DNA from: an uncultured Pirellulales bacterium
GTDB taxonomy: Bacteria > Planctomycetota > Phycisphaerae > Sedimentisphaerales > SM23-30
DNA length: 64,000 bases
Reading direction: 5' to 3'
Assembly (NCBI GenBank): GCA_964482555.1
Contig: CAYZXY010000001.1
Coordinates: forward strand, 5,915 to 69,914
Below the pieces are notes generated by a model that did not search any database, had not been told where the DNA came from, and saw nothing but the letters and a program-made list of their open reading frames with translations. Every line of letters begins with the position of its first letter. Position 1 is the first letter of the stretch. The translations under genes and the position numbers were made by a program. This document shows positions 25,106 to 51,724 of the stretch, in pieces.

Positions 25106-25132
25106 ATCCTGCCCCGGCTAAACCGGAAGGTG

Positions 25133-27443: not shown

Positions 27444-27459
27444 TAGTTTCGTGTAATTA

Positions 27460-27560: not shown

Positions 27561-27618
27561 TAAAAATTGCGTAGATCATAAAAATATGCATTTTTACGCT
27601 TAGACGCATGTCATTGAG

Positions 27619-33254: not shown

Positions 33255-33352
33255 TACTGTTCCTATTGAATTTTCCGTTGTGTCGGGACGTAAACATTTG
33301 CGAATAAAACGGTTACGCTCATCCCCATCCGGAATATCTACCCCATGGGGTA
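33255..33352 (+). repeat. MITE-like element, diverged full-length copy, F orientation
   Basis: TACTGTTCCTATTGAATTTTCCGTTGTGTCGGGACGTAAACATTTGCGAATAAAACGGTTACGC...CTACCCCATGGGGTA, preceded by TA (33253-33254). Confidence 0.65.
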
Positions 33353-34270: not shown

Positions 34271-34370
34271 ATGGAACCCTTTAAAAGCGGTTGGTTTTGC
34301 GGGGAATTCATAACATCATACTCATAGAATTGACATGTTATGAAAAATGAGGATGAATAGCAATGTTTTA

Positions 34371-34470
34371 TACCCAACGGATATGGGATGTCCGCCAGGG
34401 CCAAGCGTAAGTGTTTTACCCGCACATAATTATATTTTCCCAACTTGAACATATTCATTCGTTACCAGTA
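34371..34470 (-). repeat. MITE-like element, diverged copy, R orientation
   Basis: TACCCAACGGATATGGGATGTCCGCCAGGGCCAAGCGTAAG...CATTCGTTACCAGTA. TA at 34369-34370 and 34471-34472. Confidence 0.65.
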
Positions 34471-34557
34471 TATAAACTGCTTCCCATTGAGTTTCCCGTT
34501 CGCAGGAAGCAGATGCGGACCTGCTGGAATATGCGTGGGAGAAAACCGGATGAGCGG

Positions 34558-35556: not shown

Positions 35557-35787
35557 GACTTTTACACATTAAATTAAGATAACAGGACCGCCTGAATATA
35601 GCCGGACTGGTTCAATTAGTCAATATCATTTATCGTAACCATTCACAGGAAATAACCCCTCACATGAAGTGAGGGGTGGTTATGGGCTAATATGACGACC
35701 CCCCGATGTGACATCGCGGGCTATTGTGTTCAATTAATCAAAAAATCATAATCGAATGAAAATTCTACAAATGGTTTCCATTCAACT

Positions 35788-37266
35788 TTATGACTGCTTG
35801 AACAAATGCGCAGGATTCCGCAATATTTTCAGCTCCTCGGCTGAAAAAGAGCGGGTAGCCAGCAAAACCGCAAACGAAAGGGCGACAAACAGCACCCCTT
35901 TAATCAACAGGAAAAGTAACAGTGAACTGACGGGCAAGGGACACAGCCAGGCCGCCAGGCCGCAACCGGTGAAGATCGCCAGCAGGCGGACATGTTCCCC
36001 CCAGCGCATAACCTGACGAAACGAAATGTTCATGATGGATTTTAGCTTAACGAGCATATAAATCCAGGCCACCCAGCCAGCCAACACCATGCCGATCGTC
36101 GGACCAACGAAGGCGAGCAAGGTATTGCCGCCCAGATACAGCAGAGACAAACTGATTAAGAAATTGATCACTAGTTCCAGAACTGCGTTGTATGCTATGT
36201 ATTTATTCTTATTGACCACCCGAAACATGGTCGCGTAAACAGCGATACGGATAGGCATGGAGAACAGGAAGATTCGGAAGGGCCAGCTTGCCAGGCTGTA
36301 ATCTTCGCCAAAACAGAAAACGATGATTTCATGGGCGAAAAACAGCAGAAAGACAAAGCAGGGAAAAATAACGAAACTGCTTTTGCGGGCCGCCTCCTGC
36401 CAGGTCCCCAGGGCACGCATCAGATGCCCTTCCTTGTACATTCGCACCAGATCGGGCAGAATCGCGTTGGTGAGGCTGAAAGTCACGATGGTCACAAACG
36501 GCAGCTCAATCGTCCCGACATCATACACGGCATATTTCTCAGGGGAAAAGAAGAGGGAGATCAAAATTTTATTCAATTGCAGATTAGTGACGCCGACGAG
36601 ATTGGCGGCCAGCAGCGGCAGGACATACATCAACTGTTCGCACCAAAGCTTTCTATCGATACCCCAGGACCGCCCTTCTGTCAGACGGTACATGTGGATG
36701 AGACTGACCGCCGCCAGAATGACGCCAAAGCCGATAACGGCCCATAAGGCGGTAACGAGATCGTATCCCAGCAGAAAGACCGCCGTAACGGTCAGGATTC
36801 TGCCCAGGGACGCGGCCAGACTGTACAGGCCGGCACTGACGGCTTTGTCCATACTAATCATGAAAGAGGGTGTGATAAAGAAAAGCCGTTCGACAAAGGG
36901 ATACAGGGCGAAGATCCGGCACAAGAGGGCCAGCCGGGGATTATCAAAATACTGAGCGATAAAGCCCGAGGCGAAGAACATGAGCGCGGCGATGACCAGA
37001 GAGATAACGCAGGAGGTATAAATCGTCTGCGTTAACAGATAACGTCGCGACAGGGGATTCAGTTGAGGAATGAAATAATAAAAGCTGTTTTGCAGCTGCA
37101 TGGACAGCAAACCGGCCAGCGTCAGATAAACGAGATTCACCTGTCGAAAAGTGCCGTAAGTCTCCTGCGTGACGATTCTGACCAGAACGATACTGAGAAT
37201 CAGCGTCGAGGCCTTAAGAATCCCCTGGCTGAGCATAATGATAACGCTGCGGGTACGGATATTCAT
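35788..37266 (-). CDS. oligosaccharide flippase (Wzx/MOP superfamily polysaccharide biosynthesis protein)
   Basis: 492-aa ORF with ~12-14 TM helices, located in the glycan cluster. Confidence 0.7.
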   Translation of the reverse strand: MNIRTRSVIIMLSQGILKASTLILSIVLVRIVTQETYGTFRQVNLVYLTLAGLLSMQLQNSFYYFIPQLNPLSRRYLLTQTIYTSCVISLVIAALMFFASGFIAQYFDNPRLALLCRIFALYPFVERLFFITPSFMISMDKAVSAGLYSLAASLGRILTVTAVFLLGYDLVTALWAVIGFGVILAAVSLIHMYRLTEGRSWGIDRKLWCEQLMYVLPLLAANLVGVTNLQLNKILISLFFSPEKYAVYDVGTIELPFVTIVTFSLTNAILPDLVRMYKEGHLMRALGTWQEAARKSSFVIFPCFVFLLFFAHEIIVFCFGEDYSLASWPFRIFLFSMPIRIAVYATMFRVVNKNKYIAYNAVLELVINFLISLSLLYLGGNTLLAFVGPTIGMVLAGWVAWIYMLVKLKSIMNISFRQVMRWGEHVRLLAIFTGCGLAAWLCPLPVSSLLLFLLIKGVLFVALSFAVLLATRSFSAEELKILRNPAHLFKQS

Positions 37267-37270
37267 ACGA

Positions 37271-38104
37271 TCACGCTTTTCGTCCGGTAATGAGCAGAAT
37301 GCTTCTCCAGGGAACTACAACAGAAGTCAACAGCAGCCTCATCAAACGCGGAATTTTTTTCGTCATGCCGGAACAGAACCGCCATGACGCCAGCTCCTGC
37401 GTTTTTAGATATCTCTTTTTGGAAATCCTGAATCCTGCCTGCTCCATTGATGTTGATAATTCTGACATCGTATATTCTCTAATATGCATAATTAGATCTG
37501 TGATATGGTTCATACCTTCATCGTTATCAGGAAAAGGTTCCATGATATTTCTGCCCAACATAAGCATCGCTATATTATTCAACCTTGCGATATTTGGCGT
37601 CGTAAGAACAAGATAGCCATTGGGTTTTAATATCCTATACAATTCTCCTAAAACTCTCAGGGGGGACATGCGTAAATGCTCCAGCACTTCTGACAATATG
37701 ACTATGTCGAAACTTTCATCTGGAATAGACTCGCCAGGTTGAAAAATATTATAGGGAATAACTGGAATATCATATTTCCTCGGGAGATGGCAATACAAAT
37801 CGATGTTTTCTGAAAGATCAGCGCCGGTCACGTCAAAATTATAACATTTCTTAAAGACGATATCGTAAAAACCATAGGCGATCCCAATATCAAGAATCTT
37901 CTTACCAGATGCTACCGGGGCCAAAAGCTTCACCATTTCATGAATTCTATAGTAACTGTCATAAAAATATCTCTTGGCGCTGTCCGAAGAAATAATATTC
38001 GATCTGTAATCTCTTCCTGAACTTTTAAATACTTCATCGATTTCATGCACTATTTCATGTAGTGTGTTGTCAATTATTATCATGGCATACGATCCAATAG
38101 TCAC
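37271..38104 (-). CDS. class I SAM-dependent methyltransferase
   Basis: 277-aa ORF with motif I ILDIGIAYGFY and a post-I acidic residue, plus VILSEVLEHL. The gene is AT-rich. Confidence 0.7.
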   Translation of the reverse strand: MTIGSYAMIIIDNTLHEIVHEIDEVFKSSGRDYRSNIISSDSAKRYFYDSYYRIHEMVKLLAPVASGKKILDIGIAYGFYDIVFKKCYNFDVTGADLSENIDLYCHLPRKYDIPVIPYNIFQPGESIPDESFDIVILSEVLEHLRMSPLRVLGELYRILKPNGYLVLTTPNIARLNNIAMLMLGRNIMEPFPDNDEGMNHITDLIMHIREYTMSELSTSMEQAGFRISKKRYLKTQELASWRFCSGMTKKIPRLMRLLLTSVVVPWRSILLITGRKA

Positions 38105-38138
38105 AGTATGGACTAATCAAGTAAATATTGTGTGATTT

Positions 38139-39341
38139 TTAAAATAACGATGTATAGATACTGTCGAGTAGCTTTTTCGTATGTTTACTAGTTCGATTTT
38201 GAATGATTGTCCTTCGAGCATTTTTACAAATCGAATTCAATGAATCATAATGGTCTAAAATAAAGATAATTTTTTCAACCAATGATTTAGAGACCCCTTT
38301 TTCGTAAACAATGCCGTTTTCATTATTAACCAACAATTCAGTTATACCTTTGACATTACTTCCCAATACTATTTTTTCCATAGCCATTCCTTCCAATATT
38401 TTGGAGGGATTACTACATTCAGCAACCCAGGAAGGCATCATCGGCACAACCAGCACATCAATCGCTTTATAATATCGAGGCATTTGGTCATATGGAACCT
38501 GGCCTAATAGTTCTAATAGTTCAGGTTCAGTATTTCGATATTTTTCAATCTCATTGACCAGCGGACCTCTCCCGCAAATGACAACTTTCATTATGTTCTT
38601 ATGTTGCTCAGAAATATGCTTGAGTGACTCAAGGAAAAAAAGGACGCCATTACTGGGATGTAGCAATCCGCTATACATAAAAACTATCTTATCTTCCCAG
38701 CCATATTTATGACGTAAATATGCTCTGTCATCTTCATATTTTTTTGAATCAAATATTGCTTCATTAACAGCGGCTGGTATGATTCGTATCTTGTCTGAAT
38801 CAATCCTGAATAATTCAATAAGACGTTCCTTTTTCATTTTGGTTTGAACAATAATGCGATCCGCCTTTTGTATAAAAGAAGCCTCTTCGATCAAAGAAGC
38901 TTTTTTAATAACTGGCTTGAAAAAAGGGGAAATATTGGGATTTATCTCAACGCTGTCAAACGGCAATTGATGGTATTCATAAATTAACGGTAACTTTTTT
39001 TTTCGAGCGACGTTTAGTGCTGCTCGATAATACACAGCAGGATTATGTCCGTGTACAATATCATAATTCCCTTGAGAGGCTTTTTTTGCCATGCATCCGG
39101 CATTCATGATGGATATGGGATCAATAAGCGGAGGTGAAAACATAAGTTTTTTCCTTAAGCAATGCCTGAATACTTTTACATTGTCATACTCGCTCTGTTC
39201 CGGGATTACTTCACATTTTAAATCAGGATAAGGTACGTGAAGGTAATGGGTGTTCTCGTCACCTGTCAACATGTACAATAATCTGGAGGTCGTACCTCCA
39301 TACTGGGGTATAAAAGAATGTGCAAAATGGAGGATTTTCAA
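38139..39341 (-). CDS. GT-B glycosyltransferase (family 4-like)
   Basis: 400-aa ORF. The C-terminal domain pattern (VVPMMPSWVAECSNPSKILEGMAMEKIVLGSNVKGITELL) resembles the E-x7-E GT4 motif region. The gene is AT-rich. Confidence 0.7.
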   Translation of the reverse strand: MKILHFAHSFIPQYGGTTSRLLYMLTGDENTHYLHVPYPDLKCEVIPEQSEYDNVKVFRHCLRKKLMFSPPLIDPISIMNAGCMAKKASQGNYDIVHGHNPAVYYRAALNVARKKKLPLIYEYHQLPFDSVEINPNISPFFKPVIKKASLIEEASFIQKADRIIVQTKMKKERLIELFRIDSDKIRIIPAAVNEAIFDSKKYEDDRAYLRHKYGWEDKIVFMYSGLLHPSNGVLFFLESLKHISEQHKNIMKVVICGRGPLVNEIEKYRNTEPELLELLGQVPYDQMPRYYKAIDVLVVPMMPSWVAECSNPSKILEGMAMEKIVLGSNVKGITELLVNNENGIVYEKGVSKSLVEKIIFILDHYDSLNSICKNARRTIIQNRTSKHTKKLLDSIYTSLF

Positions 39342-40564
39342 GCCGTTTCTTTCCTTATGTTCGTCTTCCGGCTCAGGTTATGCCGGTATAAATCGAGCAG
39401 GGGCCGGACGGTCTGACTCCAGTTATAGCGGTCCAGGACCGCCGTTTTGCCTTTCTTTCCACGCTGGACGCGCGTCGTATCCCGGTAAACCTCCAGCACT
39501 GTTGCCGCCAGAGAATTTTCATCGTCCACCTGAAAAATATAGCCGCAACCGGCATCGTTAACGACCCGCATCATGGGGCGCGTACTGCTGACGATGACCG
39601 GTTTTTCGAGCATCATATATTGAAATATTTTATTGGGCATGGTCGTTTCGATATGAGGCGTCGAGATATGCGGGATCAGGCCCACCTGACACGCTTCAAT
39701 GTAAGACGGCAATCTGGTAAAAGATTGATAGCCGGTAAATTCAACCCGGTCGCCGAGATTCATCGACCGACTCAATTCTTCGATTTCGTTTTTACTGGGA
39801 CCGTCTCCGACAATCAATAGCTTTGCGCGAGGAATTTCTTTTATAATCAAAGGCATCGACCTGACAGCCGTATCCAAACCGCGCAAAGGACAAATGGCGC
39901 CAGTGTACAATATAACAAAATCGTCCTTGTATTGCTCAACAATCGAGGCATCTATCTGTAACCCGGAGAAATAATCTATATCGTCGGTGTTCGTAATTTC
40001 TATAATATCTTCCGGGCTTTTGTTTAAACTGACGATTCTGGGAATATGCTCACGGGCGACAACGATGATTTTATCCGACCAGCGGCAGGCGAACCTTTCT
40101 TCCAGGTTAAGCAGACTCAACAAAATAATTGCAAAAGGTTTAAACTTCTGATATGTTTTCGCCTTAAAACTGTGTTGCAGCATTTCGGTGTAATGCTCAT
40201 GCATATCGAAAACGATCGGGAGACCTGCAACCTTACCCGCCAGCGTTGCCGCAAAGGCATAAGGCAAATCATGAACATGCAGGGCATCGATACGATATTT
40301 CCAGCAGGCATAAAGGATTAGAAAAAACATAAAATATCGTTGAAAAAAGAAATAGATCAAATCCGAAATAGCTTTCTTCCACTGGCATGGCAACTCCACA
40401 CGTATGACATTGATGCCATCGATACATTCTTCACGCGGCTGCCCGGGTATGCGCCGGGCCATCAAATACACCTGATGACCGTCGCGAATCAGATCGCGGG
40501 CCTCGCGCTCGACACGACGGTCGGGTGGGAAACGATTGGTTGACAGTACCATCAATAGATTCAT
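39338..40564 (-). CDS. GT-B glycosyltransferase (family 4-like)
   Basis: 408-aa ORF with LIVGDGP...VEFTGY...GLIPH...NKIFQYMMLEKPVIVS. There is a 4-nt overlap with the downstream GT gene. Confidence 0.75.
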   Translation of the reverse strand: MNLLMVLSTNRFPPDRRVEREARDLIRDGHQVYLMARRIPGQPREECIDGINVIRVELPCQWKKAISDLIYFFFQRYFMFFLILYACWKYRIDALHVHDLPYAFAATLAGKVAGLPIVFDMHEHYTEMLQHSFKAKTYQKFKPFAIILLSLLNLEERFACRWSDKIIVVAREHIPRIVSLNKSPEDIIEITNTDDIDYFSGLQIDASIVEQYKDDFVILYTGAICPLRGLDTAVRSMPLIIKEIPRAKLLIVGDGPSKNEIEELSRSMNLGDRVEFTGYQSFTRLPSYIEACQVGLIPHISTPHIETTMPNKIFQYMMLEKPVIVSSTRPMMRVVNDAGCGYIFQVDDENSLAATVLEVYRDTTRVQRGKKGKTAVLDRYNWSQTVRPLLDLYRHNLSRKTNIRKETA

Positions 40565-40821
40565 TAGTTATCCATAAAAACCAGGCCAATAACTCAATAC
40601 AGTACGTTTGAATAACTAAATAAAGTAACGAAAAAATGATGAAATTAAAAGTTTTTTATATGCGGGCAGCGTAAACTAATCTACAGCCGAAAGGGTCGTA
40701 ACCTTTTTTTATGCATACACATACGTTCCTGATAAGTTTCATTTCCGGATTATTAATCGTTAATTGCATTTCAATGAACATTACTGTAACATGCCCTAAA
40801 AAGATTACAGGAGGTCAAACT

Positions 40822-41922
40822 ATGGCAGTACCAATGCTGGATTTGCGGGTGCAGTTTGGTCCGTTGCGGGATGAGATTATAGCGGAAGTGACGGACGTGC
40901 TGGACTCCCAGATGTGCGTCGGCGGGCCAAAGGTGGCGAAGTTGGAGCAGCAGGTGGCGGCGGCGTGCGGATGCCGGTACGGTGTGGGGGTCTCCAGCGG
41001 GACCGATGCGATACTGAACAGCCTGATGAGTCTTGAGATCGGATCGGGGGATGAAGTGATAACTTCGCCGTTTACGTTTTTCGCGACGGTAGGCTGCATT
41101 GTTCGGTTGGGGGCAAAGCCGGTTTTCGTGGATATTGATGAGAAAACATACAATATCGACGCCGGGCAGATCGAAGGGGCAGTAACGGAACGGACGAAGG
41201 CGATTATGCCGGTGCATCTGTATGGGCAGATGGCGGATATGGATACGATCATGCAAGTGGCTGAAAAGCATGGACTTAGCGTGATAGAGGATTGCGCCCA
41301 GGCTATCGGCAGCACCTATAAGGACCGCCCTGCCGGGAGTATTGGGACCGCGGGCTGTCTGAGCTTTTACCCGACAAAAAATCTCAACGGGGCCGGCGAC
41401 GGCGGCATGCTGGTGACGAACGATGAATCACTGCATCATCGGGCGATGATCATGCGGAATCACGGCATGGAGCCGAAATATTATCATAAATTTGTCGGGG
41501 GCAATTTCCGGCTGGACGCGATGCAGGCGGCGGTGCTGCTGTGCAAGCTGCCGCATCTGGCGGCCTGGAACGAAAAACGCCGTCAGAACGCGGCGATTTA
41601 TGACGAGAAATTCGCGGGAACAGACATTATAACTCCATATATATCAAATGATTGCGCATCGACTTATCATCAGTATTGTATTCGGGCACCGCGTCGGGAC
41701 GAGCTGGTCAGCCACCTGAGGGAAAATCAGATCGGTTGTGATATTTATTACCCGGTTCCACTGCATTTACAGGTATGTTTTGCTGATTTAGGGTATAAAA
41801 AGGGTGATTTCCCGGTATCCGAGGCGGTTTCAGAGGATATTCTGGCCCTGCCAATCTATCCGGAACTGACCGAAGTTATGCTGGAAGAAGTGGCGGACAC
41901 AATCATAAGCTTTTACAAATAA
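40822..41922 (+). CDS. DegT/DnrJ/EryC1/StrS-family sugar aminotransferase
   Basis: The start was moved to ATG 40822 (MAVPMLDL), preceded by AGGAGG at 40809-40814. Motifs: GSGDEVITSPFTFFAT, PVHLYGQ, SFYPTKNL (PLP lysine). Confidence 0.88.
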   Translation: MAVPMLDLRVQFGPLRDEIIAEVTDVLDSQMCVGGPKVAKLEQQVAAACGCRYGVGVSSGTDAILNSLMSLEIGSGDEVITSPFTFFATVGCIVRLGAKPVFVDIDEKTYNIDAGQIEGAVTERTKAIMPVHLYGQMADMDTIMQVAEKHGLSVIEDCAQAIGSTYKDRPAGSIGTAGCLSFYPTKNLNGAGDGGMLVTNDESLHHRAMIMRNHGMEPKYYHKFVGGNFRLDAMQAAVLLCKLPHLAAWNEKRRQNAAIYDEKFAGTDIITPYISNDCASTYHQYCIRAPRRDELVSHLRENQIGCDIYYPVPLHLQVCFADLGYKKGDFPVSEAVSEDILALPIYPELTEVMLEEVADTIISFYK

Positions 41923-41942
41923 GAAATTTAGACGATATTGCT

Positions 41943-42977
41943 TTAAAGCTCTTCGCCGTGGGCGGCTTTTTCCAGTGTTTCAACGATGAAAGACGTCATG
42001 TCGATTTTATCGCGAAGGAGTTTTTCGCGGGCGGCCCGGGCGTTTTCAGTCGTACCGGGCTGCTGAAGCAGAGATACGGCTTTGTTCTGGATGTCGTCCA
42101 TATCGAGCGATTGCCAGAGCAAGCCATAATCTTCCATCATATTGAGGTAGCCCAGCTTGAGCGAATTGACATAGATCGTCGGTACGCCCAAAACGCAGGC
42201 TTCCGAAGCGACCGTCGCCCCCTCAGCCACGCACAGGGATGCGAAAGCCAGCAGGTGGTGAATGTGATGCACCGGCACGGTCATGCGATAGGGTTCAAGT
42301 TCATGGGGCAAAGGGCCTTCGGATGTAATATAAGGCCGGGCATAGCGGGCAATTTCATTAACAAAGACGATTTTTTTCTTCTCATCGAGGCCGCGCTGGC
42401 CGACATCATGTATCGCGCCCCAGCTTACCATGCGAATAACACAGTATCTGCTGTCAGGATCAATGTCGTTTTGACGGAGAACGTCGGGATCGGGAGTAAA
42501 ACGTCGGGGGTGCAGATAGGCGAGTTCGTGACAGCCGGGGTAGGTTCGCTGCTTTTTACCGGCCGATTTGGTGTAACAATCAGGGGTCAAGACATACCTG
42601 GCAAACGGCCAGGTGAGGATATGAATCTGTTTCTGATGCTCGGTATCGTCCCAGACGACGGCAGGCTTACCGGTGAGAAAACCGGCATGCGAGGCAAAAA
42701 CACCGCTGACGCTGGTCAGAACGTCCGGCTTGAACTGCCGGCAGAACCGCCAAAGCTTATAATCCCGCATGAGCATTTCCACGAACAGGCCGGCGGGCCC
42801 TTTGCCGACGTGGGTGAGCTTTACGAAGGGAATCCGGTAGTTTTCGAGCAGCGGAATGGCGACATCTTTTTCGCGTGCCGTCACGGCGACATTATGGCTG
42901 CGCTGCTGCAATTCGGCAATGGCCAGCCGGAAAAAATGGACATCGCCGGGATGTATGATCTCGAATAAAAAGTTCAC
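41943..42977 (-). CDS. DUF354-family protein (GT-B/epimerase-like; glycan cluster member)
   Basis: 344-aa ORF. From memory, the N-terminus FEIIHPGDVHFFRLAIAELQQRSHNVAVTAREKDV fits the DUF354 pattern. Confidence 0.55.
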   Translation of the reverse strand: MNFLFEIIHPGDVHFFRLAIAELQQRSHNVAVTAREKDVAIPLLENYRIPFVKLTHVGKGPAGLFVEMLMRDYKLWRFCRQFKPDVLTSVSGVFASHAGFLTGKPAVVWDDTEHQKQIHILTWPFARYVLTPDCYTKSAGKKQRTYPGCHELAYLHPRRFTPDPDVLRQNDIDPDSRYCVIRMVSWGAIHDVGQRGLDEKKKIVFVNEIARYARPYITSEGPLPHELEPYRMTVPVHHIHHLLAFASLCVAEGATVASEACVLGVPTIYVNSLKLGYLNMMEDYGLLWQSLDMDDIQNKAVSLLQQPGTTENARAAREKLLRDKIDMTSFIVETLEKAAHGEEL

Positions 42978-43114
42978 AAATCGCTCCTGAACCTATAATT
43001 TGTTGTTTTGCCATCGATCATAAAACCGGCTAAAATGTAAATTATTATGGATATGATTGCAAGCAGTTAAATGAAGGACTGAAACGGCCGCCGGGCGGCA
43101 TCCAATGAACCGTT

Positions 43115-44417
43115 ATGATGAAATCATTTACAAGATGGCTGGTTCGCAGGTGCATCAAGGACCATGCGCAGGTAAGCAATCCTGAAGTACGGGGCAGATA
43201 CGGCCGGCTGGCGGCGACGATCAGCATCGTGCTGAATGTCCTGCTGTTCATCATCAAGGGAACGATGGGCATCATGCTGCACAGTGTGGGATTGATTGCC
43301 GATGCAGTGCATACCCTGACAGATTCGGGTACCTCCATCATCATTTTTATCGGGTTTCATCTGGCTCAGAAGCCGGCCGACAAAGAGCATCCCTTCGGGC
43401 ACGGGCGGGCGGAGTCTATCGCGGCCCTGGTAGTGGCACTGATTCTGATTGTTACGGGTATCGAAATATTGAAATCATCGGTGATTAAGATTTTCGATCC
43501 GGTAATACAATCAGACAAGATAAATGCCGTGGTCGTTGTTATTTTAACCGCTACGGTAGTTCTCAAGGAGCTGATGGCGCGGCTGGCCGTGACGATGGGC
43601 GATATGATCGAATCTATACCCAAAGGGTATGAAAATTCCCGGCAGGGCCGGGCGTAAGCTTTTTATCCGCAAATAATTACGTTCCGGCAAAACGGGGATT
43701 TTCAATCGGAACGAGTATAAAACGCTCACGGCGGATGCCTGGCATCATCGCAGCGACGCCTTTTCGACGGTCATGGTATTGCTGGCAATGCTGGCGTCTT
43801 ATTTAGGCATTCATAATCTGGACGGGGTAGCGGGAACGGCGGTATCTTTGATCATCATGTACAGCGGCTATATTATTGCACGGGACACGATGAGCCCCTT
43901 GATGGGCGAACGGCCGAGCAAGAACATGATCTATCGCATAGAAGATCTGGCACGAAGAATTCCGGGAGTATGGGGAGTGCACGATGTGATAGTGCATCAT
44001 TACGGTCACACGAAACTGGTATCGCTGCATATCGAAGTGGATGACCGGGAAAAGGCGATTGATCTTCATGAGATATCAGACCGGGTGGAATATTTCATTG
44101 AAAAGGAAACCGGAGCCGCGACGGTGGTGCATGTCGATCCGCTGAACGTCCGGCATGCCCGGTACGGCGAGATTTACCAGACAATTCGGGATACCGTCGC
44201 CGAAAATGACAACATCAGCAATTTTCATGAATTGCGCATTATCGGTCAGGGCGAGAAAGTCATCGCGGATTTTGAAATCACCTTGTCGGAAAGCGCCGAT
44301 CGCCGTCGTAAAAAATCGATAATCGCCAACCTGCAGAAAGATCTGGCCCTGCGGCTGACGGGCGTACAGGCCCGTATCAAGGTCGATCCCCTCTTTGTTT
44401 CCAACACACCGGAATGA
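43115..44417 (+). pseudogene. cation diffusion facilitator (CDF) family transporter split by a MITE insertion
   Basis: The first ORF (43115-43657) ends in element-derived IPKGYENSRQGRA*. The second frame resumes at TLTADAWHHRSDAF (43722 onward). Deleting 43617-43719 (103 bp) gives ...GDMIESKTLTADAWHHRSD..., a single 399-codon ORF with CDF motifs (ADAVHTLTD, HPFGHGR, DAWHHRSD) and a C-terminal cytoplasmic domain. Confidence 0.8.
43617..43717 (-). repeat. 101-bp MITE-like element inserted inside the CDF gene, R orientation
   Basis: About 95% identical by eye to the reverse complement of the 22449 copy. TA at 43615-43616 and 43718-43719. Confidence 0.9.
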
Positions 44418-44539
44418 TAAGTCGCTGCCAGGAGTTATCGGACAGCGGAAATGTCGATATATTTTAACGGTGATGTATAAAACAGGTCGATATCTACGGC
44501 TGTACCAATGATCGTTCCGCCAGAGCAGTATGGCATTAA

Positions 44540-44639
44540 TACCCAAAGGGTATGAGAATTCCCGCCAGGTCTGGACGTAAAAGCTTTACCCGCTCATATT
44601 AACGTTTGGATAAACGGAAATAATCAATCGGAACGAGTA
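44540..44639 (-). repeat. MITE-like element, R orientation
   Basis: TACCCAAAGGGTATGAGAATTCCCGCCAGGTCTGGACGTAAAAGC...CAATCGGAACGAGTA, followed by TA. The left end of the element (in its own orientation) lies 12 nt upstream of ATG 44652. Confidence 0.75.
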
Positions 44640-44651
44640 TAAGCATACGCT

Positions 44652-45944
44652 ATGAAAGCAATTTTTAATACAATAGTTTGCCATAAACGGAGTTTCGGGT
44701 TTATCATCGTTCTGATGGTTATCCTGCGTCTGGCGGGATTGGGGCTAGGCGGTAAGCTGGCTTGGCGCGACGGCGACGAAATGGTCATGATCGCGCAGCG
44801 TATTGTTGACGGTTACGGCTACAGCAATCCTTACGTGCCGCCGGAGGATTCACCAACCGCGGTCGTACCACCGCTTTATGTATGGGTGCTTAGCGGAGTA
44901 CTTTACCTGTTCGGCAGCGAAGGGCGGCTTTTCTACCTGGCAATCCAATTGTTGAATATCGCTCTGCAGGCAGGAACGGTTTGGATTATGATGATAATAC
45001 TCCGACGAAAAATCGGACCCAGGCCGGCTTTGCTATACGGATTACTGTTTGCCGTCAGTCCCTCTCTGATCTTAGTATCGGGCCAGGCCTGGGAAACAGC
45101 GCTGACGCATTTACTGCTGACGCTGCTGGCTGCGATTATCATTCTATATTGGGAAGCCCCGGTCCCTTTATACTGGTTCATCTTGACTGGCGGTCTGATG
45201 GGGCTTATATCGCTGAGTAATCCGGGCTGGACACTTTGCTGGCCGTTTATCGGACTGCTGGGATTATGGCGGTTGTTTCGATGGGACATCAAAAAGATGC
45301 TGCTGCCGGGATTGCTGCTGATCATGGGATTTGCTGCTGTCGCGGCGCCCTGGACAGTGCGTAATTATCGTGAGTTCGATAAATTCCTGTTTGTGCGCAG
45401 CATGGTAGGGCCGGAAATGTTCTGCGGTAATCATCCCGACGCCCGCGGCGGGCACGGCCGCGGCTTCACGCAATATCAGTTACTGTATCGCAAAGATCTG
45501 GCGGAGAAACTGGAGGAGATGGGTGAAACGGCATACGATCAATGGATGTGGCAGCGGTCGCGGGAAGCCATATCGAGCGACCTGCCGGGGTATATAAAAA
45601 AATGCGGGCTGCGGGTGATCATGTTCTGGATGGGTGATTTCGATCGCATTCATTTATCCATCCAGCGCGGCAGCACGACCAATACGATTTTACTGTTGAT
45701 GCTGTCATTGTATTTATCGGTCGAGACGATAGCCGGTTTATGGGGATGGGCGGTGAACAGACAGGCGCGGCAGATATTCTGGATACTGGGAGTGTACTGC
45801 CTGGTCATGCCGCTGCCATACTATTTAATCATAGTGGGTTTTCGTTTTCGCGCTGCGCTCTCGCCGTTCATGCTGGTCTGGGTCACGATGGGTATATTGC
45901 GAATACTGGAGAAATGGACCGATAACGAACCTGCGTCCGAATAA
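44652..45944 (+). CDS. GT-C fold membrane glycosyltransferase (family 39 / ArnT-PMT-like)
   Basis: 430-aa polytopic ORF. The N-terminal loop GDEMVMIAQRIVDGYGYSNPY...VVPPLYVWVL fits the GT39 pattern. Confidence 0.6.
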   Translation: MKAIFNTIVCHKRSFGFIIVLMVILRLAGLGLGGKLAWRDGDEMVMIAQRIVDGYGYSNPYVPPEDSPTAVVPPLYVWVLSGVLYLFGSEGRLFYLAIQLLNIALQAGTVWIMMIILRRKIGPRPALLYGLLFAVSPSLILVSGQAWETALTHLLLTLLAAIIILYWEAPVPLYWFILTGGLMGLISLSNPGWTLCWPFIGLLGLWRLFRWDIKKMLLPGLLLIMGFAAVAAPWTVRNYREFDKFLFVRSMVGPEMFCGNHPDARGGHGRGFTQYQLLYRKDLAEKLEEMGETAYDQWMWQRSREAISSDLPGYIKKCGLRVIMFWMGDFDRIHLSIQRGSTTNTILLLMLSLYLSVETIAGLWGWAVNRQARQIFWILGVYCLVMPLPYYLIIVGFRFRAALSPFMLVWVTMGILRILEKWTDNEPASE

Positions 45945-46031
45945 ATTTCAGATACCGTTTCATGCTGTAAGCCTTTCTATCTATATCCGGGACATCAGCG
46001 AATCGAATAACCGAGTTGAAATCAACTCATT

Positions 46032-46049
46032 CACGGGCAAGCTGCCCAT
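46032..46049. repeat. REP-like hairpin
   Basis: CACGGGCA-AGC-TGCCCAT, intergenic. It is immediately preceded by a second perfect hairpin, GAGTTGA-AA-TCAACTC (46013-46028). Confidence 0.5.
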
Positions 46050-46176
46050 AATACATTTTCATAACAGGAGGAATTATCCGCATAATCGTAATAAATATCA
46101 TGAATTCACCATCATTTATGCCGATATGACAGTTAGTGCGAATTGATAATATACTTATGTATTAAGGTAACCAGGC

Positions 46177-47586
46177 ATGTTTCTCCTGCGTGACCCATTT
46201 ATTGTGAGCCTGCTGTCATTAACGATCGCGGGGCTGGTGATATTACTGCAACCAACCCGGCGGCCGTACTGGTGGCTGTTTATATTGACGATTGTATTTT
46301 TCGCGTTCCCGCGCGCGGGATTCACGCTGGAGAAGAACCTGCTCCCTCTGCCGATACCGCATATCCTGACGGCTATACTGGGGGTTGAGTGGTTTCTGCG
46401 GCGGCATCACTCCGAGGTCGGACCGCCTTTTTTCAAAAAGCTGGTTATTGTCTTTGCTCTGACCGCCTTTTTCAGCGCCTGTTACGGCTTATGCATGGGC
46501 GGACGACCGCTGATGGTTTTTCTGGATTTGTGCTTTTATTTCTTTTCATTGACGATTTTCTTTTTCTGCATCGACACCTTTCGAGAACGAAGGCAATTCA
46601 ATGTTTTTATCGGACTGATATTGTCGATTTCCATGCTGGTCAGCGTTTATGGACTTTTGCAGGTTTTTTGGGGCACGGATATTCTCATTCCCAATATCAC
46701 CCACAATACCGGCGGCGGTGATTATTCTAAAGCTTACCTCCAGGGCAATGACATAAACTATATGCGAGTGTTGAGCAGTTACGGCGATCCGAACGTATTA
46801 AGTTCACAGCTTTTACTTTTTATAGGCATTGCATTTTCGATAATGATCGGTCATGGCATCCGACTCAGATACCGGCTGTTTTGTGTGCTGGTGGTGGTAT
46901 GTAATATCGTTTGCCTGGTGTTGACCGGTTCGCGTGCGGCGATGATATGCCTGCCGCTGGTTATCATCATTTTGCTGTGCCTGAAAAGCAGATGGGTCCG
47001 GTTTACGGTCCTGTTTCTGATACCGATGGGAATGATTCTTATGCATGAGCATCTGTTTGCGTTCCTGAACTCTCCCATGCTCATGATTATAAATGACGAG
47101 CGGTTATCCTATCCGCAGAAGCTGGTCGAATTGCTGCTGACCTCTCCATTCGGCTCCGGACTGGGCAACAACATCTATCTCGGAACGCCGGATGGCGACA
47201 GTTCATTGATCTTCAAAAACGCCTCCAATGTTTTTGACAGTTGGAATTCGTTCTGGATGAACCTGGTGGCCCGCATGGGGATTCAGGGCTTTCTTTGTTT
47301 CGTTTTCCTGCTGGGCACCTTGTGGCATTATATCTGGCGTCAGTCACGACATATACATCACCCGCTGGTTCAGGCATCTCTGCTGGGAGGGCTGGCCGGC
47401 ATGAGCGTCCAGATGTTGATCTGGCTGGTCAATAATACATATATGCTGCCGGGAGGCGGTCTGAATTTCTGGTTCATGATGGGCATGATGGTCGTCGGCT
47501 GCCATGCCTATACGCATGCGCCGGAACCAATGATGGTCCCCTGTCAGCCGATGTGGACACAAAAGAGAGTTGTTCCAACGACATAG
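46177..47586 (+). CDS. O-antigen ligase/polymerase-like membrane protein (Wzy_C domain family)
   Basis: 469-aa ORF with ~11 TM helices and the characteristic LTGSRAAMI segment followed by a large loop. Confidence 0.65.
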   Translation: MFLLRDPFIVSLLSLTIAGLVILLQPTRRPYWWLFILTIVFFAFPRAGFTLEKNLLPLPIPHILTAILGVEWFLRRHHSEVGPPFFKKLVIVFALTAFFSACYGLCMGGRPLMVFLDLCFYFFSLTIFFFCIDTFRERRQFNVFIGLILSISMLVSVYGLLQVFWGTDILIPNITHNTGGGDYSKAYLQGNDINYMRVLSSYGDPNVLSSQLLLFIGIAFSIMIGHGIRLRYRLFCVLVVVCNIVCLVLTGSRAAMICLPLVIIILLCLKSRWVRFTVLFLIPMGMILMHEHLFAFLNSPMLMIINDERLSYPQKLVELLLTSPFGSGLGNNIYLGTPDGDSSLIFKNASNVFDSWNSFWMNLVARMGIQGFLCFVFLLGTLWHYIWRQSRHIHHPLVQASLLGGLAGMSVQMLIWLVNNTYMLPGGGLNFWFMMGMMVVGCHAYTHAPEPMMVPCQPMWTQKRVVPTT

Positions 47587-47619
47587 TTTTCCAGACAGAA
47601 TAAACATGAGGAAATCCGG

Positions 47620-47639
47620 AGTGCGATTTCGCACTTTTT
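47620..47639 (+). terminator. rho-independent terminator after the O-antigen-ligase-like gene
   Basis: AGTGCGA-TT-TCGCACT followed by TTTTT, 34 nt after the stop. A second hairpin, AAGGCC-TTACAG-GGCCTT-TT, lies at 47661-47680. Confidence 0.7.
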
Positions 47640-48007
47640 CTTGTGGTATCATTAACTGATAAGGCCTTACAGGGCCTTTTGTCAGCGATGCAACGTTTTT
47701 TTGCGATTTTCGATCACTTATCCGAAAGTGAATCATAATATCGTCGGGCTTAAAAGACCCTGCGGAACGCCAAAGCGTTATCAAAAAAATGCGAAGGTTA
47801 AGTTTGGATACCTGCCAAAGTCAATCTTAATTACTCAAAGGGACCGATTCTATTGAAGGAGTCAGGAACCAAGAGTTAGAAGCCAGTACGACATACCACA
47901 ATAAACGCGACGATGGGTTTTCGTCCCTCATACAGTCGACCTGTTTAGGAAATGGCATACCAGGAGTAATGATTTACAGATTCATTTGTAACGAGTAGAA
48001 CAGCACT

Positions 48008-49459
48008 ATGAATATCGTATTTCTGAACGGCCCATTTCGCGGTCTGCCCTATTCCCGCAGCAGCCGCTCACCGGCGGTGACCAAGAGCGGCACGCTCTAT
48101 TATCCGCTCTGGCTGGCGTATGCCGCGGGCTATGCGGCTCGTTCACAACCGTTTAACGTTGATCTCATCGATGCGGTTGCCCGCGGCTGGCAAATCGGCG
48201 ATGTCACATATTATCTTCGGGCCAATCCCCCAGCAATGATATTCTGCGACACCTCAACCCCAAGCATATCCGAAGACCTGCGCACCGCCAGCAGTCTCAA
48301 AACGGCATTCCCTGAAACATCGGTCTTTCTGGTCGGTACGCATGCAACTGCCTGTGCCGAGGATTTACTGCGTAACCACCCTTTTCTGGACGGCATTGTC
48401 CGGGGAGAATATGACCAGACCTGTGTCGATCTGGCGATCAACAGGCGAGACGGGGGAAGCCGGGAGCATATCGCCGGGTTTTCGTTCCGACGGGAGGGGC
48501 AAATTGTCCACAACCATGACCGGGAGCTGCTCCTCGATCTCGACAGACTGCCCTGGGCGGGCGAAATTTACCGGCAGTATCTGAACGTTAACGATTATTT
48601 CTTCGCAGCGGCCCGGTTCCCCATGCTGATGACCATCACCTCGCGCGGCTGTCTGCATCGCTGCCGCTGGTGTCTGTATCCGCAGGTCATGCACCGGGGG
48701 AAATATCGCATGCGCTCCGCGGAAAACGTCGCGGCAGAGTTCGCGTGGGTCGCGGAGGAGATGCCGGAAATCAAGGAAATCGGCATCGAAGATGATCTCT
48801 TTACAGGCGACAAGAACCGGCTACGGAACATCTGCGAGCGTCTTATCCGTCAGAGAAATACCTTGCCGTTCTGGTGCGATACCCGTGTGGATCTGGATTA
48901 TGAGACTATGCGATTGATGAAATCCGCGGGCTGCCGGCTGTTGATAGCCGGTTTTGAGAGCGGCAGCCAGAGCATTCTGGATAGCATTAACAAAAAAACT
49001 CATGTTGATCAGGGCCGTGAATTTATGGCCAATGCGCGGCGGGCGGGTCTGCTGGTGCATGGCTGCTTTGTGGTGGGCAACCCCGGCGAAACCCGGGAAA
49101 CCATGCAGGATACACTGCGACTGGCCAAGCAACTCAATCCCGATACGGTGCAGTTTTTTCCCATGATCGTTTATCCCGGAACGCAGTTATATGACTGGTC
49201 GCGGGAGCAGGGGTATCTGCGAACGAACGATTACGAGCACTGGTTGACCGCTGAGGGGCTGCATAACTGCACGGTCGATCTGCCGGGACTGCAGGGTGAA
49301 GAAATTCTGCGATTCTGCAACCATGCCCGGCGCGACTATTATCTTCGCAGAAAGTATCTGTTCCGTAAGCTTGGACAGTCGCTGACAAATTATCATGAAG
49401 CCAAACGGAACGTCAAAGCCTTCCGCACTTTCGCCCGCCACCTGGTAAAGACATCATGA
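48008..49459 (+). CDS. B12-binding-domain radical SAM protein (class B rSAM)
   Basis: 483-aa ORF. N-terminal Rossmann-like B12 domain, then SRGCLHRCRWCLYP (CxxxCxxC). Confidence 0.8.
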   Translation: MNIVFLNGPFRGLPYSRSSRSPAVTKSGTLYYPLWLAYAAGYAARSQPFNVDLIDAVARGWQIGDVTYYLRANPPAMIFCDTSTPSISEDLRTASSLKTAFPETSVFLVGTHATACAEDLLRNHPFLDGIVRGEYDQTCVDLAINRRDGGSREHIAGFSFRREGQIVHNHDRELLLDLDRLPWAGEIYRQYLNVNDYFFAAARFPMLMTITSRGCLHRCRWCLYPQVMHRGKYRMRSAENVAAEFAWVAEEMPEIKEIGIEDDLFTGDKNRLRNICERLIRQRNTLPFWCDTRVDLDYETMRLMKSAGCRLLIAGFESGSQSILDSINKKTHVDQGREFMANARRAGLLVHGCFVVGNPGETRETMQDTLRLAKQLNPDTVQFFPMIVYPGTQLYDWSREQGYLRTNDYEHWLTAEGLHNCTVDLPGLQGEEILRFCNHARRDYYLRRKYLFRKLGQSLTNYHEAKRNVKAFRTFARHLVKTS

Positions 49460-50379
49460 CCATCGTTGCTGTTGACAAACCATCATTTTCCGTTGTGCCG
49501 GAAATCGCCTGGGAGCGGATTGCGTGCAATCTGTGCGGTTCGGACAAAACCCGACCGTATCATCGGGAAACCCTGCCCTATTTTGACCGCAAGCTCACAT
49601 TCGACATTGTCAAATGCCGGGTCTGCGGGCTGGTCTATACCAATCCGCGGCTGGTGGATTATAACGCGCCTTATTTATATGAATCGGATAGCAGCCATGC
49701 AAACTACGCCGAACATGATAAAGCCAAACAGCCAGTTTTTCTGGCGGCGCTGGCACGAATCACAGGTTTGCTGGCAAATAAGAACGAAGGGAAACTTGCA
49801 AAATTATTGGACATCGGATGCGGTTCCGGCTTTTTTTTGCACCTGGCACGGAAGAAGCACTTCCAGGTGAGCGGTATAGAACCCGCCGGGGCGTTCGCCC
49901 ATTTCGCGATGGAATATTACGGATTGCCCGTTGAGCAGTCGGATATTTATGAGGCAAGGCTGCCGGAAAATGAATTTGACGTCATTACGGCATGGGATGT
50001 CATCGAGCACGTTCCCGATCCGCGGCTTTTTCTCAGACAATGCCGACAATGGCTCCGGCCCGGCGGCATCATGGCGTTGCGTTTTCCCGGCGACCGCTGG
50101 CAGAAAATAAAGGGTTTTCTGCTGCATCAGGTGCTGGGGTCGGAGCGGGCGGCTTTTGGTCCGACCATGCATCTGTATTTTTTCAATGAACAGACCTTCA
50201 GGAAGTTGGCCGAACAGGCCGGTCTGCAATTGATTCATTTTCAGACCACGCCCACAGAAAACAATGCCGGCTCACCCGCGATTAACCGTTTGAAAACGCT
50301 CAGCCACAAGGTATTGCGTGCGGTGGAATCGGTCAGCGGCCGAACGCTGGGCAACCTGGAAGTCTATTGCCGAAAGTAA
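49456..50379 (+). CDS. class I SAM-dependent methyltransferase with an N-terminal Cys4 zinc-ribbon
   Basis: 307-aa ORF with CNLCGS...CRVCGLVYTNP followed by LLDIGCGSGFFL. Its ATG overlaps the rSAM stop (ATGA). Confidence 0.75.
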   Translation: MTIVAVDKPSFSVVPEIAWERIACNLCGSDKTRPYHRETLPYFDRKLTFDIVKCRVCGLVYTNPRLVDYNAPYLYESDSSHANYAEHDKAKQPVFLAALARITGLLANKNEGKLAKLLDIGCGSGFFLHLARKKHFQVSGIEPAGAFAHFAMEYYGLPVEQSDIYEARLPENEFDVITAWDVIEHVPDPRLFLRQCRQWLRPGGIMALRFPGDRWQKIKGFLLHQVLGSERAAFGPTMHLYFFNEQTFRKLAEQAGLQLIHFQTTPTENNAGSPAINRLKTLSHKVLRAVESVSGRTLGNLEVYCRK

Positions 50380-50454
50380 AAAATGTTCTTAATTGCGACT
50401 CATTAAATGACGACAAAACAGGGGAACGAACTCGAGATGTTAAGGTAATCTTTT

Positions 50455-51654
50455 ATGGGCGATACGGCTCAGACAATCTGGAAAATCATCTTCTGGCTCT
50501 GCCTGGGAGCGACAGTCTATACCTATTTTCTCTACCCGCTACTGATTTATATTATCGGACGAATGACGCTGCTGGTCCGCGTTTTTAAGGCGAACCGAGG
50601 GGTATCTGAGATGTTTCCGATTGCCGAGGCGGATCTGCCGACGGTAACGATGGTCATCAGCGCGTTCAATGAGGAAAACGTCCTGCCGGAGAAAATCGCC
50701 AATTGCCTTGCGCTGGATTATCCACGGGGCAAACTAAACTTTCTCATCGGCTCGGATGGATCAACGGATAGGACCGGGGCCATTCTGGAAACGATACAAA
50801 ATGATCGTTTTCATACATTGCATAATCAATACCGCTCAGGTAAAGTTCGGATGCTGAACCAGCTGATGCCGATGGTCAAAAGCGATATTGTCGTTTTTTC
50901 CGATGCCAATACGCTCTTCAGGACCGACGCGGTACGCCGGCTGATCCAGCATTTTCGTGAACCGCGTATCGGGTGTGTGAACGGCAAACTCGAACTGGTG
51001 TCCGCCGAAGGCAATCCGGATACCTGTCAACCGGAAGGGCTTTACTGGCGCTATGAAAACTGGATCAAGCAGAAGGAAAGTCATCTGGGCGTGGTGCCGA
51101 CAATCAATGGCGGTATCTTTGCGATACGTCGGCACTTGTTCCAGAAGCTGCCGGACAATGCCGTCACTGAAGACCAGGTTCAGGGCATGAAGATCATGAC
51201 GCAGGGGTATCGCTGTAAGTTTGCGGATGATGCCCATGCGAGCGAGACGATTTCAAGCTGGACGGGCGAACTGCGGCGGCGTATCCGCATCAGCGCGGGA
51301 AATTTCCAGTCGCTGCTGCTGGTACCGAAGATTCTCGATCCGCGGTGCGGATGGGTCAGTTTCTGTTTCATCAGTCATAAACTGTTGCGCTGGCTGGTGC
51401 CGTTTTTCCTGGCGGGGATTCTGACGGCGAATCTGATACTGGCGGGTCAGCCCTTTTATGGCAGTACACTGCTGCTGCAGAGCGTCTTTTATCTGACAGG
51501 GATAATCGGCACGATTTTGCCGAAACTGGGCTCCGCGTTCAAGATTCTCAGCGTACCGAAATATTTCATTACGATGAATATCGCGATTTTCCTGGGGCTC
51601 ACGCGATTTCTGGCCGGCCGTCAACAGGTCACCTGGAAAAAAGCTGCACGATAA
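50455..51654 (+). CDS. membrane-integrated family 2 glycosyltransferase (processive synthase-like)
   Basis: 399-aa ORF with VISAFNEE, GSDGSTD, FSDANT, TEDQ and a QxxRxxF-like GYRCKF. It has an N-terminal TM helix and 3-4 C-terminal TM helices. Confidence 0.8.
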   Translation: MGDTAQTIWKIIFWLCLGATVYTYFLYPLLIYIIGRMTLLVRVFKANRGVSEMFPIAEADLPTVTMVISAFNEENVLPEKIANCLALDYPRGKLNFLIGSDGSTDRTGAILETIQNDRFHTLHNQYRSGKVRMLNQLMPMVKSDIVVFSDANTLFRTDAVRRLIQHFREPRIGCVNGKLELVSAEGNPDTCQPEGLYWRYENWIKQKESHLGVVPTINGGIFAIRRHLFQKLPDNAVTEDQVQGMKIMTQGYRCKFADDAHASETISSWTGELRRRIRISAGNFQSLLLVPKILDPRCGWVSFCFISHKLLRWLVPFFLAGILTANLILAGQPFYGSTLLLQSVFYLTGIIGTILPKLGSAFKILSVPKYFITMNIAIFLGLTRFLAGRQQVTWKKAAR

Positions 51655-51724
51655 CCGACCTGTCATCAGCGATAAATCAAGCCATTCCTTTAATCCGTCA
51701 TAGCCGGAAATCCGAACACGGTCT

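Follow-up and report, generated by a model that had tools for sequence, protein, structure and literature searches.

We analyzed a 64,000-nt stretch of contig CAYZXY010000001.1 (GCA_964482555.1), hereafter called the window, from an uncultured member of the Planctomycetota, class Phycisphaerae, close to the Sedimentisphaerales. At positions 43115-44417 of the plus strand, the window contains a gene of the cation diffusion facilitator (CDF) family that is interrupted by a 101-bp repeat with a TA at either side. An earlier reading of the DNA sequence, the first-pass annotation, had described the gene as split by a TA-targeting miniature inverted-repeat transposable element (MITE). Our analysis supports this interpretation and adds two refinements, which concern the element termini and the meaning of the TA duplication. 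The locus is composed of the following parts (TM, transmembrane helix):

43115-43616, plus strand: native N-terminal part of the CDF gene, codons 1-167 and the first base of codon 168, encoding TM1-TM4 including the TM2 motif ADAVHTLTD (from Pfam and alignments to homologues and to structure 2qfi)
43615-43616, no strand: left TA, the target dinucleotide and first copy of the apparent 2-bp target-site duplication (from the sequence)
43617-43717, plus strand: 101-bp MITE, TACCCAAAGGGTA...CGGAACGAGTA, non-coding, forming a long imperfect hairpin (nhmmer E 2e-33)
43718-43719, no strand: right TA, second copy of the target dinucleotide (from the sequence and the deletion product)
43720-44417, plus strand: C-terminal part of the CDF gene, beginning with bases 2 and 3 of codon 168 and extending to the stop codon, encoding TM5 with the HxxxD motif ADAWHHRSD, TM6, the ZT_dimer domain and an extra C-terminal extension

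Excision of positions 43617-43719 (103 bp) joined gaa-tct-a/aa-acg and gave 1200 nt in a single frame, corresponding to 399 codons and a stop codon. The deletions 43615-43717 and 43616-43718 yielded the same product, because TA flanks the unit on both sides, and the inserted unit therefore consists of 101 bp plus one TA. The insertion site is the TA formed by the codon pair TCT-AAA (Ser167-Lys168). At present, the locus holds two open reading frames (ORFs). The upstream ORF (43115-43657, 180 aa) ends with ...TMGDMIES-IPKGYENSRQGRA followed by the stop codon (C-terminal end TMGDMIESIPKGYENSRQGRA), and its last 13 residues as well as the stop codon at 43655-43657 come from the MITE. The downstream ORF (43773-44417) comprises 214 aa. 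The conserved downstream frame is offset by +1 (103 mod 3 = 1) and is open from position 43677, its first ATG, GTG or TTG being the ATG at 43773, which lies beyond the TM5 metal-site motif. The first-pass annotation had stated that the upstream ORF ends in element-encoded residues, that the downstream frame is shifted by +1 and that removal of 43617-43719 restores 399 codons, thereby defining both the TA target and the size of the inserted unit. Each of these statements was reproduced to the base.

The repaired CDF protein and its intact relatives

The protein obtained after excision matched the Pfam family Cation_efflux (PF01545) over profile positions 2-198 of 198 with an E-value of 1.9e-43 and ZT_dimer (PF16916) with an E-value of 1.5e-20. 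The Cation_efflux match of the 180-aa N-terminal fragment alone spanned profile positions 2-121 only, and the 214-aa fragment retained just the tail of the membrane domain. Homologues of the repaired protein were searched in 5.8 billion protein clusters and the best 120 were examined. Most of these were single ORFs with a length of about 385-435 aa, a few were shorter or partial, and the closest full-length homologue was 54% identical. The named homologues belonged mostly to Planctomycetota, Phycisphaerae and Sedimentisphaerales, and a few to other phyla.

When the repaired protein was aligned with 13 homologues, each about 395 aa long, the junction MIES/KTLTADAWHHRSD (MIES/KTLTADAWHHRSDA) lay within a gap-free block, in which the nearby residues S167, L170, A172, D173, H176, H177, R178 and D180 were invariant. 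The metal-site residues of TM2 (D63, H66, D70) and TM5 (D173, H176, H177, D180) were identical in the query and all 13 homologues. Thus, the repair restores the TM-helix motif expected of a CDF protein, as the first-pass annotation had claimed. The best match among solved structures was E. coli FieF/YiiP (2qfi; E-value 2e-32, residues 29-311), with SKTLTADAWHHRSD of the repaired protein aligned to SQAVRADMLHYQSD of 2qfi and the TM5 motif to ADMLHYQSD of FieF. Transport site A of YiiP is formed by H153 and D157 on TM5 together with two aspartate residues on TM2. According to the alignment with 2qfi, the element breaks the gene eight residues ahead of the equivalents of H153 and D157, which make up the metal-site half contributed by TM5. 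The repaired protein shares the Cation_efflux and ZT_dimer architecture and the TM2 and TM5 motifs with FieF/YiiP-type transporters. It differs from them in that its gene is interrupted, in that its subfamily, at about 395 aa, exceeds FieF at the C-terminus by an extra segment of about 88 aa, and in that this subfamily is embedded in a conserved glycan-biosynthesis neighborhood (see below).

A single uninterrupted polypeptide is not encoded at the locus, since the 103-bp insertion splits the ORF into the 180-aa and 214-aa pieces; the locus therefore represents a disrupted CDF gene and not a working member of the family. The insertion would shift the frame by +1 and introduce a stop codon after 13 codons. 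The remaining coding potential would be at most a 180-aa stub with TM1-TM4 and a 214-aa fragment which, if translated, would start after the HxxxD motif of TM5. Because no start codon precedes 43773, any C-terminal product would lack D173, H176/H177 and D180 of TM5. As TM2 and TM5 of the same protomer are required for the transport site, the gene has very probably been inactivated by the MITE. It is highly improbable, in our view, that the split is tolerated, with both fragments being made and reassembling into a working transporter or with the truncated products having taken on a new role. Both halves are without secondary lesions, an in-frame ATG is present at 43773, and the right end of the MITE forms an outward TATAAN hexamer with the TA and the A-rich flank. 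However, a C-terminal product would be devoid of the invariant TM5 residues, there being no ATG, GTG or TTG ahead of 43773, no homologue naturally split at the break point was present among the matches listed, and a recent insertion, with one mismatch to the sister copy of the element, explains the missing decay equally well.

The CDF gene is situated within a glycan-biosynthesis cluster, as the first-pass annotation had noted. Upstream of it we found genes for DegT, DUF354, two members of glycosyltransferase family 4 (GT4), a methyltransferase, a Polysacc_synt flippase and a GT2 protein, and downstream genes for Wzy_C, a B12-radical-SAM protein, a methyltransferase and another GT2 protein. 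Window positions 34500-51700 were compared with two related loci, L016 (GCA_030611635.1; positions 1-12704) and L017 (JGI 3300033141; positions 1-17188). L016 has the order DegT (plus strand), DUF354 (minus strand) and CDF (plus strand, intact, 396 aa), which corresponds to the order left of the gene in the window. L017 has the order GT2, CDF (intact, 395 aa), Wzy_C, B12-radical-SAM, methyltransferase and GT2, which corresponds to the order to the right. The two CDF proteins are 52-53% identical to that of the window. On the basis of gene order, L016 and L017 are orthologous to the window locus. Relatives thus share the placement of the CDF gene in this neighborhood, which is no accident of the window genome. 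This arrangement may reflect a functional link between metal export by this CDF subfamily and envelope glycan synthesis. Two further proteins of this region remained without assignment. The 430-aa membrane protein encoded at 44652-45944 had no match in Pfam or NCBIfam, and its gene is absent from the corresponding position in L017. The 1405-aa ORF at 51728-55942 (minus strand), beside the glycan cluster, gave no significant Pfam match and only a sub-threshold one to DUF748.

No MITE copies were detected in the L016 and L017 loci. The homologous site reads TCG-AAG in L016 and TCG-AAA in L017; the window genome thus offers the TA target only because its Ser167 codon is TCT. The empty site generated in silico matched L016, L017 and the 13 homologues without gaps. 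The same gene neighborhood with an intact gene in two relatives excludes a natural two-gene arrangement, and the best 120 homologues, being mostly single ORFs, likewise gave no sign of a natural split at this point. A natural split gene, a programmed bypass and an intron were thus rejected: the homologues are continuous, the insert is a dispersed TA-flanked repeat, and there was no match to an intron family. In the comparison with relatives and metagenomes proposed in the first-pass annotation, intact alleles were found in L016 and L017 but no empty site from the same species. The exact repaired proteins (399 aa and 398 aa) were absent from a collection of 15 billion sequences, as was the 26-mer of the intact junction from the JGI metagenome contigs.

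Copies of the element, age of the insertion and assembly support

A profile built from eight copies of the element was searched over the 64-kb window with nhmmer. Nine solid copies, about one per 7 kb, were identified in addition to fragments:

43615-43719 with TA flanks, plus strand: MITE in the CDF gene, the only copy interrupting a confirmed gene
22447-22551 with TA flanks, minus strand: sister copy, 99% identical, its end lying 3 nt ahead of the start codon (ATG) of a gene for an ArsP_1-family permease
44539-44641, plus strand: older copy, about 77-78% identical, left flank AA instead of TA, between the CDF stop codon and the next gene, right end 10 nt before the ATG at 44652
27458-27562, plus strand: copy 85% identical, overlapping only the probably over-extended TTG start of the mechanically called ORF 26841-27548
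3357-3461, minus strand: intergenic copy, 83% identical
10676-10780, minus strand: intergenic copy, 80% identical
10241-10345, minus strand: intergenic copy with degenerate left end, 41 nt upstream of the start codon of the valyl-tRNA synthetase (ValRS) gene
34370-34472, plus strand: intergenic copy, about 72% identical, abutted at 34473 by a solo end of a related family
33254-33352, minus strand: diverged intergenic copy (nhmmer E 8e-12)

All eight copies outside the CDF gene lie beyond confident coding regions; in ORF 26841-27548, the Pfam domain starts at residue 39. The first 30 nt of the element had three matches in the window at up to two mismatches, compared to 0.00 expected from shuffled sequences. 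The copies are 99-101 bp long throughout and contain no ORF. A TA is present to the right of the element in 9/9 copies and to the left, and hence on both sides, in 6/9, and the right TA is followed by an A in 8/9.

The ends of the element are TATACTCGTTCCGATTGA and TATACCCAAAGGGTA. With the TA included, the tips read TATAC...GTATA. The next 10 nt differ between the two ends, being ACCCAAAGGGT, itself a small palindrome, at one end and TCGGAACGAG at the other. Good inverted symmetry begins at nt 14 with a 12-bp block (TGAAAATTCCCG / CGGGGATTTTCA), and the two ends show an inverted identity of about 60% across about 42 nt. The element folds into a single long imperfect hairpin (-19.5 kcal/mol, z-score -2.7). 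The pairing is kept across all copies, with 78.5% of the alignment cells paired compared to 31-48% with slid partners. Compensatory change was not clearly above the shuffle control, the covariation score being reached or exceeded by 41 of 500 shuffles, and we therefore do not claim a selected RNA structure. No Rfam family reached its gathering threshold in the window. At E ≤ 1, the only Rfam match to the element was a chance-level one to anti-hemB (14.7 bits, cut-off 49.5), and a scan for promoters and terminators revealed only weak terminator-like hairpins in the element, one per strand.

Of the eight copies not located in the CDF gene, three have their right end facing a nearby start codon, at a distance of 3 nt (22443-22451; ATG of the ArsP_1 gene), 10 nt (44639-44654; ATG at 44652) and 41 nt (10200-10245; ValRS). 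Together with the TA and the A-rich flank, the right end forms the outward TATAAN already mentioned, which is a perfect TATAAT at 22447 and 10241. The location of right ends near start codons could have an effect on expression or could merely result from preferential insertion into AT-rich leader regions.

A degenerate 31-nt core pattern that fits all eight first-found copies gave only chance matches, judged by eye and with nhmmer, in the JGI metagenomes and in 185,579 representative genomes, which apparently do not include the host species. In viral contigs the pattern had no match beyond chance level, and blastn of the element against plasmids gave no match. The family is thus found in no public collection searched and was previously undescribed.

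The copy in the CDF gene and that at 22447-22551 differ at one position, and the other copies are 70-85% identical to the CDF copy. A repeat finder paired 43615-43720 with 22446-22551 at 99% complementarity over 106 nt, and the 30-nt left end holds one mismatch. Decay of the CDF gene was assessed by a leave-one-out comparison on the 88 columns in which the other 13 homologues do not vary. The repaired protein departed from these at seven of the 88 columns (E33A, I106V, F157L, L229M, E288D, I306V, D353E), all conservative exchanges except E33A, and the other homologues at zero to nine. A second frameshift or stop codon was not found in the CDF gene. The near-identical sister copy and the lack of any other lesion point to a recent insertion, as the first-pass annotation had suggested from the near-identity, and suggest that the family was recently active. 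The insertion could in principle still be polymorphic in the population.

Further assemblies were available as Logan contigs of the sequencing runs SRR7048221 and SRR7048222. In both, the contigs run from the neighboring genes through the N-terminal half of the CDF gene and 28 nt into the element, stopping at the same base, and the left junction gaatcta/tacccaaagggtatgaaaattcccggca is present in both. The stopping point is where the 31-mer becomes TA plus pure element, and a de Bruijn assembler halts at a repeat that has other identical copies. Because this 31-mer is unique within the window, further identical copies are expected elsewhere in the genome. At 34370 and 33254, where the copies are older and diverged, the same Logan contig continues without a break. 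More generally, the Logan contigs L001-L004, compared with window positions 43644 and 44540, end at young copies of the MITE and pass old ones. The Logan contigs are 100% identical to the window. As they may share the reads of the source assembly, they are a control of the assembler but not of the sample.

These contigs also bear on the question whether a repeat copy was mis-threaded into an intact gene during assembly, the real genome having an uninterrupted 399-codon gene. The element is present in several copies, with a 99% identical sister, and hence is of the type that confuses assemblers; the short-read Logan contigs break at it, and neither the right junction nor the C-terminal half was recovered from an independent assembly in look-ups with the 214-aa ORF, with nine partial products that could arise and with P0241, the only 100% match, which stems from the source contig itself. 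On the other hand, the left junction was found in two assemblies made with a different assembler, though possibly from the same reads, and these end only at the pure-repeat k-mer. An abundant intact allele in the samples would branch the graph at the junction itself, and a mis-join is unlikely to place a complete 101-bp unit precisely between two TAs in such a way that its removal recovers the reading frame base for base. We consider an assembly artefact, which the first-pass annotation had raised as a potential objection, to be extremely unlikely.

Mobilization of the element

The size of 99-101 bp, the lack of coding capacity, the dispersed copies, the apparent TA target duplication and the pair of filled and empty sites identify the element as a MITE. 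Bacterial MITEs are shorter than 200 bp and have 5'-TA-3' termini, target duplications and long stem-loops (PMC2229807). Insertion into TA with duplication of this dinucleotide, as apparent here, is the biochemical signature of IS630/Tc1-mariner elements, and IS630-type mobilization is for this reason taken as most likely. The IS630-family element ISY100 inserts into TA, duplicating it, and rarely uses AA/TT sites (PMC2170065), which the AA-flanked copy at 44539 resembles. Our best guess is that a TA-specific DDE transposase of the IS630/Tc1-mariner type, with its gene at another place in the genome, mobilized the MITE in trans. Taken together, we consider it highly likely that a 101-bp non-autonomous MITE recently inserted at a TA of a FieF/YiiP-type CDF gene, with very probable inactivation of the gene and with IS630/Tc1-mariner-type mobilization as the most likely route.

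Several observations weigh against this interpretation. The outer 13 nt are poor mutual inverted repeats in which only TAC and a few further bases match, so that the element falls short of the regularity of a textbook IS630-derived MITE. About 48 ORFs of the window were scanned with Pfam, and no DDE transposase, and thus none with matching ends, was among them. A TA on both sides could also be left by a site-specific single-strand HUH/Y1 transposase if both the target and the right-end cleavage site end in TA. Furthermore, neither an empty site from the same species nor the right junction in an independent assembly was found, as described above, and the loss of CDF function is deduced from sequence. 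The proposal of a MITE in the first-pass annotation is accordingly refined: the TA-flanked unit stands, but its termini are only weakly inverted with respect to each other, and the TA duplication alone does not prove a DDE transposase of the IS630 type.

The features that define ERIC, Correia/NEMIS and RUP as MITEs, namely a length of about 100 bp, absence of an ORF, TA termini, a long stem-loop, numerous and mostly intergenic copies and a filled site that can be demonstrated, are all shown by the element (PMC2229807). With RUP and other IS630-related MITEs it shares the length of about 100-107 bp, insertion at TA, TA termini, the lack of coding sequence, many mostly intergenic copies and occasional gene inactivation (PMC2229807). 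RUP itself (107 bp) has been ascribed to IS630-Spn1 (PMC2229807). In contrast to these, the element has no sequence similarity to them, no cognate IS630-type element was identified here, its outer 13 nt are weakly inverted, and the host is a planctomycete and not a firmicute. The short form of the Correia/NEMIS element of Neisseria, of about 107 bp, likewise has TA termini and a TA target duplication, and both elements are abundant between genes near gene starts, form long stem-loops, which in the case of Correia occur in transcripts, and have no known mobilizing transposase (PMC2229807). Correia elements differ by near-perfect terminal inverted repeats of 24-26 bp and a site for integration host factor in the long form, and again there is no sequence similarity. 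Like REP/REPIN sequences associated with REP-associated tyrosine transposases (RAYTs), the element is short, palindromic, mostly extragenic and occasionally located in a gene, and Y1/HUH-like sequences occur in the region (PMC3733652). However, it is a TA-flanked unit of fixed length (99-101 bp) instead of a palindrome of 20-40 bp or a doublet of these, it carries no conserved GTAG/CGTC tag, and the Y1-like ORF of the window is not flanked by repeats and has lost the HUH motif.

This last comparison relates to a different route of mobilization. The element could be REPIN/REP-like or a palindromic derivative of IS200/IS605, and an HUH (Y1) tyrosine transposase, not a DDE enzyme, would mobilize it in single-stranded form. 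It would then have inserted 3' of a TA without a true duplication and could excise seamlessly, so that the CDF gene would be restorable. Candidate enzymes are the free-standing Y1_Tnp-like ORF 23618-24301 and an HUH domain embedded in ValRS, and in favor of this route the window contains these two sequences related to Y1_Tnp and RAYTs but no DDE transposase. The fold into a single long hairpin, the asymmetric termini, each of which is conserved across subfamilies, and the position of two copies just upstream of the HUH-bearing ValRS gene are consistent with such a mechanism, as is the sequence GGTAG near the left end of three older copies, which recalls GTAG-tagged REPs (PMC3733652). However, GGTAG is confined to these three, and the two youngest copies read GGTATG and lack the tag. 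ORF 23618-24301 is devoid of the HUH histidines (LLDKGFYLV in place of the expected MPNHVHVVV) and has neither element-like nor REP-like repeats at its flanks. Conservation of the left flank is limited to the TA, whereas IS200/IS605 enzymes normally read a target of 4-5 nt. At 59112-59215, a related copy is bounded by genuine terminal inverted repeats, and no co-occurrence was seen, the HUH domain of ValRS being kept in the 119 closest ValRS homologues and the element being found in 0 of the 185,579 representative genomes.

Two properties of REP/REPIN systems, a conserved GTAG/CGTC tag and a RAYT gene with intact HUH motif and catalytic tyrosine flanked by the repeats, were thus not found. In the comparison with an IS200/IS605-derived element (PATE), only the TA was kept in the left flank, and sequence alone cannot separate flanking TAs from a duplication. 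On balance, movement by an HUH enzyme appears unlikely. A more far-reaching variant, which we regard as very unlikely, is that an HUH/Y1 enzyme of this lineage, perhaps the strictly conserved HUH domain of ValRS, moves the hairpin element in single-stranded form and that the CDF gene within the conserved glycan cluster serves as a reversible on/off switch at the population level. If an HUH enzyme did move the element, excision would be seamless and the CDF gene would be switchable rather than dead.

HUH domains, further repeats and meaning of the insertion

The ValRS gene (6562-10200, minus strand) encodes 1213 aa and contains an in-frame insert of about 240 aa at approximately residues 212-455, where the editing domain begins, in the loop that separates YPL from VATTRPET. 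This insert matched the RAYT family NF047646 with an E-value of 4e-21 and 75 bits (cut-off 80), and it also matched Pfam Y1_Tnp. ValRS is 100% identical to a Logan protein, and its best named relative is that of Anaerobaca lacustris (67% identity), with many metagenome-assembled genomes of Sedimentisphaerales, Phycisphaerae and Planctomycetota also among the matches. The insert is present in 119 of the best 120 homologues, the named ones among which belong to Planctomycetota/Phycisphaerae and include A. lacustris. The HUH histidines H357 and H359 and the catalytic tyrosine Y417 are invariant in every insert-bearing ValRS. We found no paper describing a fusion of ValRS with a transposase. The retention of an HUH nuclease domain that appears catalytically intact within an essential aminoacyl-tRNA synthetase is the most interesting feature of the window, although an incidental one. 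The free-standing ORF 23618-24301 (minus strand, 228 aa) matched Y1_Tnp in Pfam with an E-value of 3.9e-7 and NF047646 with 44.5 bits (cut-off 80). With KGFYL in place of the HUH motif and no REP-like or terminal-inverted-repeat-like sequences at its flanks, it probably represents an inactive, domesticated relative.

Besides the MITE, the window contains a second, shorter repeat family with the same termini, TATACTSNTTYCGATTGA and/or TACCCAAAGGGTA, and a different interior:

25131-25212, 31913 to about 32040, and 59112-59215: copies of the second family
1613-1634, 18127-18168 and 34473-34490: solo ends of the second family, that at 34473 directly abutting the MITE at 34370

The copy at 59112-59215 carries the TATACTSNTTYCGATTGA terminus (CGATTGA-type end) at both ends, which is a true terminal inverted repeat, and is flanked by TA. 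Two further inverted-repeat pairs (43-49 nt, 81-86% identical), involving 10547-10661, 19356-19398 and 47747-47795, connect two other intergenic sites with the repeat-rich spacer that lies upstream of the ValRS gene. They may represent further small repeat families.

We found no paper reporting a MITE in a CDF gene and none naming the SRR runs used here. To our knowledge, few Phycisphaerae have been cultured, and hardly any mobile elements have been described from this class. The insertion is a textbook case of a gene recently inactivated by a MITE, and what is new is an undescribed element family in an under-studied lineage. The pair of filled and empty sites, exact to the base, defines the ends, the size (101 bp) and the target (TA) of a MITE family in Phycisphaerae. 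For annotation, 43115-43657 and 43773-44417 are best entered as one pseudogene and not as two proteins, and near-identical copies of the MITE fragment short-read assemblies of this organism. Biologically, the insertion amounts to one strain-level loss of a metal exporter, which will not surprise the specialist.

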